Positions 11,597 through 12,113 of a stretch of DNA of 41,886 nucleotides are shown here, piece by piece; positions within the stretch are counted from its first letter, which is position 1; each line of letters starts with the position of its first letter. Where the stretch lies: the IMG/VR virus record IMGVR_UViG_2529292907_000015, positions 1-41,886 of that record, one strand, 5' to 3'. Source of the DNA: a virus. Taxonomy: Duplodnaviria > Heunggongvirae > Uroviricota > Caudoviricetes. The notes below the pieces were generated by a model. That model had not been told where the DNA came from. It saw nothing but the letters and a program-made list of their open reading frames with translations, and searched no databases. Made by a program: the position numbers and the translations under genes.

Positions 11597-11833
11597 CGAT
11601 ATGGGAATTCCCATATCGGGTAAAAACGGTTTGCGGTAAAGCGAGAGTTAAGTAGAATTGCTGCGGGTGCTTGAGGCTATCTGCCTCAGGCATGAACACC
11701 AAAAGGCAGATAGAGAAAAGCCCCAGTTAACATTACGCGTCCTGCAAGACGCTTAACATTAATCTGAGGCCATATCTATGCGACACATAGAGATTAGCCT
11801 CTTACGGACCGAAAGGTCAAGGAGAAGCAGGCT
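11597..11833 (+). promoter_or_regulatory. hok leader region: fold-back structures, mok-like upstream ORF, presumed Sok antisense RNA target
   Basis: 22-bp perfect palindrome (11597-11618). 9-bp stem CTATCTGCC/GGCAGATAG. 19-codon uORF (11778-11837) whose stop overlaps the hok ATG. Confidence 0.45.
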
Positions 11834-11989
11834 ATGAAGCAGCAAAAGGCGATGTTAATCGCCCTGATCGTCATCTGTTTAACCGTCATAGTGACGGCAC
11901 TGGTAACGAGGAAAGACCTCTGCGAGGTACGAATCCGAACCGGCCAGACGGAGGTCGCTGTCTTCACAGCTTACGAACCTGAGGAGTAA
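11834..11989 (+). CDS. hok: Hok/Gef-family type I toxin
   Basis: 51-aa product MKQQKAMLIALIVICLTVIVTALVTRKDLCEVRIRTGQTEVAVFTAYEPEE matches the Hok family pattern (TM helix, LTRK.LCE.R...EVA..AYE). AAGGAGAAG SD. 3' stem-loop at 11997-12018. Confidence 0.85.
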   Translation: MKQQKAMLIALIVICLTVIVTALVTRKDLCEVRIRTGQTEVAVFTAYEPEE

Positions 11990-12113
11990 GAGACCAGGCG
12001 AGGGAGAAATCCCTCGCCACCTCTGATGTGTCAGGCATCCTCAACGCACCCGCACTTAACCCACTTCAGTAAGACGTTATATAAGTAATTTTAATATAGA
12101 TAAGGATTAGCGA

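Follow-up and report, generated by a model that had tools for sequence, protein, structure and literature searches.

Among type I toxin–antitoxin modules of the hok/sok kind, hok/mok/sok (parB) of plasmid R1 is the family paradigm, and a prophage-borne relative, hokW/mokW/sokW of 933W and Sp5 (AF125520), has been characterized experimentally (Takada et al., 2021, PMC8621323). In Sp5, HokW arrests growth and is neutralized by sokW expressed from the sokW promoter (Takada et al., 2021, PMC8621323); both RNAs are detected on northern blots, and after induction the system hastens lysis and raises phage release twofold (PMC8621323). A further relative is hokD (relF) of the Qin prophage of Escherichia coli K-12, whose product is reported to be among the Hok homologues that lyse cells when overexpressed (bioRxiv 10.1101/2025.08.07.668861). 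Here we describe a locus of this family in the IMG/VR virus record IMGVR_UViG_2529292907_000015, a stretch of 41,886 nucleotides from a virus of the Caudoviricetes that we call the window and to whose positions all coordinates refer. We are confident that the window, a lambdoid E. coli prophage, carries a complete hok/mok/sok-type type I toxin–antitoxin module of the hokD/hokW subgroup. The module is an ordinary one, previously annotated, and may be regarded as a textbook case, given that the near-identical hokW/sokW has already been studied by others. Annotation pipelines mark the coding sequence (CDS) of hok alone, and the regulatory RNA parts (Sok, mok and tac/fbi) are delimited here; beyond correct annotation, the significance of the locus is small.

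Results

The toxin gene and its relatives

The toxin open reading frame (ORF; 11834..11989, plus strand) encodes 51 amino acids and matches the Pfam family HOK_GEF (PF01848) along the entire profile (positions 1-42 of 42; E = 1.2e-23, 82.9 bits against a cut-off of 22), as well as PHROG 251, 'MokW-like host killing' (2.8e-33). The peptide agrees with E. coli K-12 HokD/RelF at every residue (100% identity), is 92% identical to HokW (47/51) and 42% identical to R1 Hok, and the gene is labelled hokD by NCBI PGAP. A search of a phage collection found the locus at 92.6% nucleotide identity in 933W, where mokW, hokW and sokW are annotated, and also in VT2-Sakai/Sp5. An earlier note on this DNA, made from the letters alone, had read the ORF as a 51-residue toxin of the Hok/Gef family and had suggested a comparison with hokD/relF loci. 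The matches bear this assignment out, and the comparison returns, besides the identical protein, 98.4% nucleotide identity to the K-12 locus across 11820-12067. The locus is also widespread: its 551-nt region is matched in 4728 of 5426 complete E. coli genomes, with 100% identity in strain E41.

Upstream of the toxin ORF, the predicted hok Shine-Dalgarno (SD) sequence AAGGAG (11819..11824, plus strand) overlaps the -35 hexamer of the predicted Sok promoter on the opposite strand. The sequence CAAGGAGAAG at this site is nearly invariant in our alignment of 25 sequences (A2), to which all counts of homologues refer. The Rfam model RF01794, 'sok antitoxin (CssrC)', gave a full-length match on the plus strand (11665-11836; 108 bits, with the gathering score at 59). 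We rejected this match as evidence for an antisense Sok, as it lies in the sense orientation and its final model positions are the hok AUG. It marks the hok leader, and from it one can read neither where the Sok RNA lies nor on which strand.

The hok mRNA and its two folds

The predicted hok promoter (11631..11658, plus strand) consists of a -35 hexamer TTGCGG (11631-11636), a 16-nt spacer and a -10 hexamer TAGAAT (11653-11658). A -10 hexamer (TAGAAT, TATAAT, TACAAT or TAGTAT) stands at a constant distance from GCGGGTGCTTGAGG in most of the homologues and is displaced or less clear in three (L007, L020 and L011); the -35 hexamer is not conserved. The RF01794 match begins at 11665, and alignment to the R1-type hok mRNA puts +1 at 11666 (R1 numbering from PMC9841398), which places the 5' end to within ~2 nt. 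With the limits of homology taken into account, the full-length hok mRNA is predicted to be ~392 nt long (11665..12056, plus strand).

This 392-nt RNA folds with a minimum free energy (MFE) of -162.6 kcal/mol (z = -9.1), and a tac/fbi helix closes the molecule. The predicted translational activator (tac; 11665..11676, plus strand) is formed by the first 12 nt of the mRNA and pairs with 12039-12051 both in the MFE fold and in an inverted-repeat scan, where the long-range fold-back partners are 11662-11688 and 12027-12054. The complementary fold-back inhibitory (fbi) element CCUCAACGCACCC is predicted at 12039..12051 (plus strand) and could extend to 12054. The full-length fold further contains a 5' hairpin (11677-86 with 11704-13, plus strand) and a long hairpin (11726-63, plus strand), and between them lies the putative ucb (anti-SD) box AAGCCCC (11718..11724, plus strand). 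At the base of the long hairpin, the strand 11720-11726 is paired with the region of the mok SD; it includes four of the ucb nucleotides (11720-11722 and 11724), and A11718-A11719 are unpaired. Toward the 3' end, the arms GGCGAGGGA (11997-12005) and TCCCTCGCC (12010-12018) form a stem-loop (11997..12018, plus strand) with a perfect 9-bp stem and a 4-nt loop; once the mRNA has been processed to its translatable form, this hairpin presumably protects its end. Its equivalent in R1, the last stem-loop, shields Tr-hok from 3' exonucleases (PMC9841398).

Comparison among the homologues supports this fold. Over the 25 sequences, the window's full-length structure is 89.5% paired and has 31 pairs altered on both sides; slid controls, in which the partners were moved by 1-3 columns, gave 38-45% and 11-15 such pairs, and none of the shuffles did as well. 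These figures are inflated to some degree by the relatedness of the sequences and by taking the test structure from the window itself. For the tac/fbi helix the paired share is 94.5%, with one compensatory change from G-C to A-U in five sequences. The 3' stem-loop, which the earlier note had recognized as a 9-bp hairpin at 11997-12018, is 92.7% paired with two pairs altered on both sides, so that its perfect stem is conserved and carries compensatory changes. Homology, the positions of the elements and a conserved, covarying RNA structure are thus demonstrated for this locus.

A shortened RNA folds differently. When the mRNA is truncated at 12025, the MFE structure switches to pairing of tac with all seven nucleotides of ucb, together with pairing of the mok SD region GAGGC (11766-11770) with a putative dcb box GCCUC (11797..11801, plus strand); the switch does not occur with ends at 12020 or 12022. 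This combination of tac/ucb and mok-SD/dcb helices is the published open, translatable form of R1 hok mRNA (PMC9841398). Among the homologues the tac/ucb helix is 98.8% paired and the mok-SD/dcb helix 100% paired, and both are invariant.

The hexamer TACGAA (11972-11977), which holds the hok Tyr47 codon, is invariant in 25/25 homologues and pairs with the region of the hok start codon in the full-length fold. Adenosine-to-inosine editing by TadA has been shown at codon 29 of hokB, and hokC, hokD and hokE are reported to show something similar at 'cysteine 46' (bioRxiv 10.1101/2025.08.07.668861). It is our own suggestion that the Tyr47 codon may be the hokD editing site, with UACGAA as the TadA recognition motif.

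A predicted Sok-like antisense RNA

The earlier note had expected a Sok-like RNA on the minus strand at about 11700-11830. Homology agrees with this expectation and predicts an RNA running from about 11784 to 11712 behind a promoter at 11791-11820. The sokW annotation of AF125520 maps to 11784..11716, and the predicted RNA (11712..11784, minus strand) would be ~69-73 nt long. Its predicted promoter (11791..11820, minus strand) has a -35 hexamer TTGACC (11820-11815), an 18-nt spacer and a -10 hexamer TAATCT (11796-11791), and it is the positional homologue of the promoters of 933W/Sp5 sokW (TTGCCT-17-TAACCT) and of R1 (TTGCGC-17-TATCCT); neither hexamer shifts its position among the 25 homologues. 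For 933W/Sp5 sokW, mutation of the -10 hexamer abolished antitoxin activity (PMC8621323). Both this promoter and that of hok were positioned by homology, since a generic promoter scan gave neither. Folded from 11784 to 11712, the Sok-like RNA would have a single-stranded 5' tail of 13 nt, a long hairpin and then the U-rich tail GGGGCUUUUCUCU, with a folding energy of -29.8 kcal/mol (z = -4.4) that none of 200 shuffled sequences equalled. The 5' tail is complementary to the region of the mok start codon.

A 19-codon form of mok

The region of the mok start codon belongs to a leader ORF of 19 codons (11778..11837, plus strand). From its ATG at 11778 to its TGA at 11837 it translates to MRHIEISLLRTERSRRSRL*, and the TGA (11835-11837) overlaps the hok ATG (11834-11836) in the arrangement AUGA. 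The predicted mok SD, GAGG (11766..11769, plus strand), lies 8 nt upstream of the ATG and is invariant in 25/25 homologues; GAGG is the mok SD in R1 as well (PMC9841398). The mok ATG shares its alignment column with the annotated start of 933W mokW and is kept in 24/25 homologues, 56-58 nt upstream of hok. The mok-like leader described in the earlier note, with 19 codons and a stop overlapping the hok ATG, therefore stands, as its ATG falls on the start annotated for mokW.

What distinguishes the homologues is the reading frame. Where the ATG is 57 nt upstream, as in R1-type, hokC-like and 933W loci, mok is an in-frame extension of Hok with 69-71 codons. A start 58 nt upstream gives a +1 overlapping ORF of 56-69 codons, or of 12 codons in Kluyvera ascorbata (L032), where the start is ATA. 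At 56 nt, the spacing found in the window, in E. ruysiae, in E. whittamii and in two Erwinia loci, the result is a 19-codon ORF ending in AUGA. Relative to 933W, the window has a 2-nt deletion after the mok ATG and a 1-nt insertion (GGTCAAGG). The short upstream ORF is thus mok in a variant frame; the canonical mok, that of R1 and 933W, has 70 codons and is in frame.

A frameshift of this kind could be taken for decay private to this prophage. However, the 86-nt mok region is found at an identity of at least 99% in 777 E. coli records, and it is therefore a common allele. In R1, hok translation is unaffected by stop codons that come after the hok start, and the part of mok that it requires is the first 19 codons alone (PMC9841398). 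The window's allele would therefore be expected to function, the simplest route being termination and re-initiation. In effect, its mok is naturally cut to exactly the 19 codons that suffice in R1 mutagenesis.

Extent of the module and the upstream insertion

The earlier note had drawn the locus from 11597 to 12020 and had counted among its long fold-back elements a 22-bp palindrome centred on GAATTC. Neither limit holds; the module runs from ~11631 to ~12056, and the limits given before take in DNA at the start that does not belong to the locus and drop fbi at the end. The end at 12020 truncates the locus because both the fold-back pairing (11662-11688 with 12027-12054) and homology to 12051 reach beyond it. 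At the other side, diverged homologues (69-78% identity, from Kluyvera, Pseudocitrobacter, Erwinia and other Escherichia) align across window positions 11653-12051 only, and the alignment of closer relatives begins at ~11621.

The palindrome itself, CGATATGGGAATTCCCATATCG (11597-11618), is real. It is a perfect 22-bp palindrome with GAATTC at its centre, it occurs once in the window, and 100 shuffles gave no match. Between 11-bp direct repeats GGGTAAAAACG (11443-53 and 11618-28), the window has an insertion of 175 bp that 933W and STEC1084 lack, and the palindrome sits inside this insertion together with an SD sequence and a hydrophobic 34-aa ORF (11484..11588, MSDDISLAMEGALAVVAVVGVYCLVVFLMDRLGN) for which no Pfam or PHROG family was found. 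The palindrome is missing from 933W, STEC1084, S. flexneri, E. albertii and the other loci compared, and it is present only where the upstream 34-aa ORF is present also. It lies ~47 nt upstream of the predicted mRNA start and ~13 nt upstream of the hok -35.

Could the hok transcript, or a regulatory fold of it, nonetheless start at or before 11597, with the palindrome as one of its fold-back elements? A genuine, perfect and non-random palindrome so close to the -35 invites this reading, and transcripts reading through from upstream prophage genes would contain it. We nevertheless give it next to no credence. The palindrome lies outside the homology region common to all hok loci, which begins at about 11621 or 11651 and reaches 12051, it is bounded with its insertion by the GGGTAAAAACG repeat, it is absent from the compared loci that lack the 34-aa ORF, and the conserved partners of the mRNA 5' end are ucb and fbi. 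The palindrome was accordingly tested and rejected as a part of the locus, on the grounds of the alignment limits, its absence from other loci and the insertion: the element that the earlier note had seen exists and is perfect, but it lies upstream of the transcript and is not an element of the hok RNA.

Directly before the hok promoter region, a hydrophobic 27-aa ORF MNWPEAFAITGVAMAIAFLVYVICRWG (11365-11448) gave only a weak PHROG hit and no useful Pfam match. Its position is conserved in 933W and STEC1084, where it starts with MTWPEAF.

Prophage context

The window is a lambdoid prophage with an integrase at 1-1020, a full-length DicF small RNA at 4435-4486 (76.7 bits) and a CI-type repressor with an S24 peptidase domain at 6287-7060, all on the minus strand. 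After the repressor come YdaT, replication genes, DUF977, DUF551, the hok locus, a split FkbM methyltransferase, DUF968, RusA and the Q antiterminator (15578-16111), which is followed by four tRNAs and lysozyme. This places the hok locus in the nin region, with the replication genes on one side and the Q antiterminator on the other, and in the same orientation as early-right transcription. The tRNA cluster (Met-CAT, Lys-TTT, Thr-TGT and Gly-TCC; 16306-16615, plus strand) lies directly downstream of the Q antiterminator; DicF and such a cluster are both common in lambdoid prophages of the Qin and Stx-phage type.

Immediately downstream of hok, a perfect (GCCCA)x27.4 pentanucleotide array (12534-12670) splits the FkbM-family methyltransferase gene into two halves that are out of frame (12114..12680 and 12505..13095). 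The array has 12.4 copies in strain E41, where the gene is likewise split, and 10.4 copies in strain E9, where the CDS is intact at 897 nt; the length differences from the intact allele, 10 nt and 85 nt, both shift the frame. The pattern suggests that a prophage methyltransferase undergoes phase variation here by the slipped-strand route. The FkbM gene was found in only 5 of the 5426 complete E. coli genomes.

Among the homologous loci, one contig of Enterobacteriaceae bacterium MGYG-HGUT-00110 (L030) bears two complete tandem hok/sok modules (269-662 and 831-1225), ~560 bp apart, each with its own tac/fbi, mok and Sok promoter.

Discussion

Proposed mechanism

We infer the regulatory mechanism of this module from R1 and from hokW/sokW, and it is backed here by the conservation of structure and elements. 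A constitutive promoter (-10 TAGAAT) would give rise to an mRNA of ~390 nt starting near 11665. In the full-length RNA, tac (11665-11676) would pair with fbi (12039-12051) and ucb would sequester the mok SD, so that the RNA would be neither translated nor bound by Sok. Slow 3' trimming to the stem-loop at 11997-12018 would remove fbi, upon which tac and ucb (11718-24) and the mok SD and dcb (11797-801) could pair to give the open form. We propose that ribosomes translating the 19-codon leader (11778-11837) then cross the hok SD and stop at AUGA, allowing re-initiation at hok. As long as it is made, a short-lived antisense RNA of ~70 nt would pair with the mok initiation region, blocking translation of mok and hence of hok and triggering cleavage of the duplex. 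Once Sok synthesis stops, the stable processed mRNA would yield HokD, a 51-aa inner-membrane toxin.

Several points weigh against this interpretation. The Sok -10 hexamer TAATCT matches the consensus at 3/6 positions, with a spacer of 18 nt instead of 17. A generic sigma-70 promoter scan of 11350-12200 called neither the hok nor the Sok promoter; the hok promoter was missed because its -35 matches the consensus at 3/6 positions only. A terminator scan of the same interval found no intrinsic terminator after fbi, unlike in homologues that have a T-run there, and the 3' end of the mRNA is uncertain as a result. The refolding to the open form is conditional on the 3' end, because ends at 12020 and 12022 give other MFE folds, and the tac/ucb and SD/dcb helices, being invariant, carry no covariation evidence; the pairing statistics are subject to the inflation noted with them. 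The transcripts, the RNA ends, the processing, toxicity at this locus and its role are matters that we infer. Lastly, chromosomal hokA, hokB and hokC are reported to be unable to mediate post-segregational killing (Pedersen and Gerdes, 1999, as cited in bioRxiv 10.1101/2025.08.07.668861).

Taken further, some of these points would suit a different explanation, in which the locus is an evolutionary relic: still recognizable, but as silent as the hok loci of the K-12 chromosome, perhaps through the mok frameshift or through weak promoters. The mok frame is indeed shifted to 19 codons relative to 933W, the two promoters do fail the generic scan with the Sok -10 so far from consensus, the reported inactivity of hokA, hokB and hokC offers a precedent, and K-12 hokD is without any upstream regulation. 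Yet every known element is present and in register in the window, and the Hok ORF is undamaged and encodes the same protein as the toxic HokD. The supposedly broken leader recurs independently, ending in AUGA, in E. ruysiae, E. whittamii and Erwinia loci, and the allele is shared at the level of at least 99% identity by the 777 E. coli records. Nor does the Sok -10 single the window out, as the functional sokW -10 (TAACCT) is no nearer to consensus. We thus consider a relic improbable and favor an intact, regulated module.

For such an intact module the most likely role, by analogy with Sp5, is that the toxin would be made on prophage induction and would hasten lysis and phage release by early membrane damage. 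Prophage retention or phage exclusion are possible alternative roles. We also put forward, tentatively and with considerable doubt, a combined proposal: that the minimal mok acts by termination and re-initiation and that induction could silence Sok, whose promoter faces early-right transcription, by transcriptional interference. Upstream of the module, our scan gave a single weak terminator-like site, at 11539-11555 inside the 34-aa ORF. If the proposal is true, interference with Sok would explain the unexplained RecA-dependent loss of sokW RNA seen in Sp5.

Comparison with known systems

Among the closest known systems is hokW/mokW/sokW of 933W/Sp5 (AF125520; Takada et al., 2021, PMC8621323), which is prophage-borne like the window's module and has 92.6% nucleotide identity to it over 441 nt. 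The hok promoter, tac, ucb, the long Sok hairpin, the position of the mok ATG, dcb, the 3' stem-loop and fbi are all shared. The two differ in mok: in 933W, mokW extends hokW in frame, has 70 codons and starts from an ATG 57 nt upstream, whereas the window has the 19-codon upstream ORF with its ATG 56 nt upstream. They differ also in the Sok promoter (TTGACC-18-TAATCT in the window, TTGCCT-17-TAACCT in 933W), in the C-terminus of the toxin (TAYEPEE, against VDYESEK in HokW) and in location, which is the nin region in the window and near the right end of the record in 933W.

With hok/mok/sok of R1, the window shares the order of elements and, as predicted, the alternative pairings (tac/fbi and ucb/mok-SD, against tac/ucb and mok-SD/dcb), and in both mok starts ~57 nt upstream of hok and contains the Sok promoter, a predicted one in the window. 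The R1 toxin, however, is only 42% identical, the R1 system is borne by a plasmid and not by a prophage, and the window has a longer Sok-target hairpin and a truncated mok. An R1-type plasmid copy in our alignment (L004) has a GGGGCTG...CAGCCCCTTT hairpin and a T-run after fbi, where the window is without an intrinsic terminator.

In its toxin, the window is closest to hokD (relF) of K-12 Qin. The Hok proteins are identical, the 3' untranslated region is the same, including the stem-loop and fbi (98.4% identity, window 11820-12067), and the neighborhood is similarly that of a nin region, with DUF968 and a Q antiterminator downstream. In K-12, however, homology begins only at the hok SD, and the promoter, tac, ucb, mok and sok are replaced by relBE; in the window they are intact. 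The window thus offers a clean example of an intact hokD locus, the K-12 copy of which has lost all of its RNA regulation to relBE.

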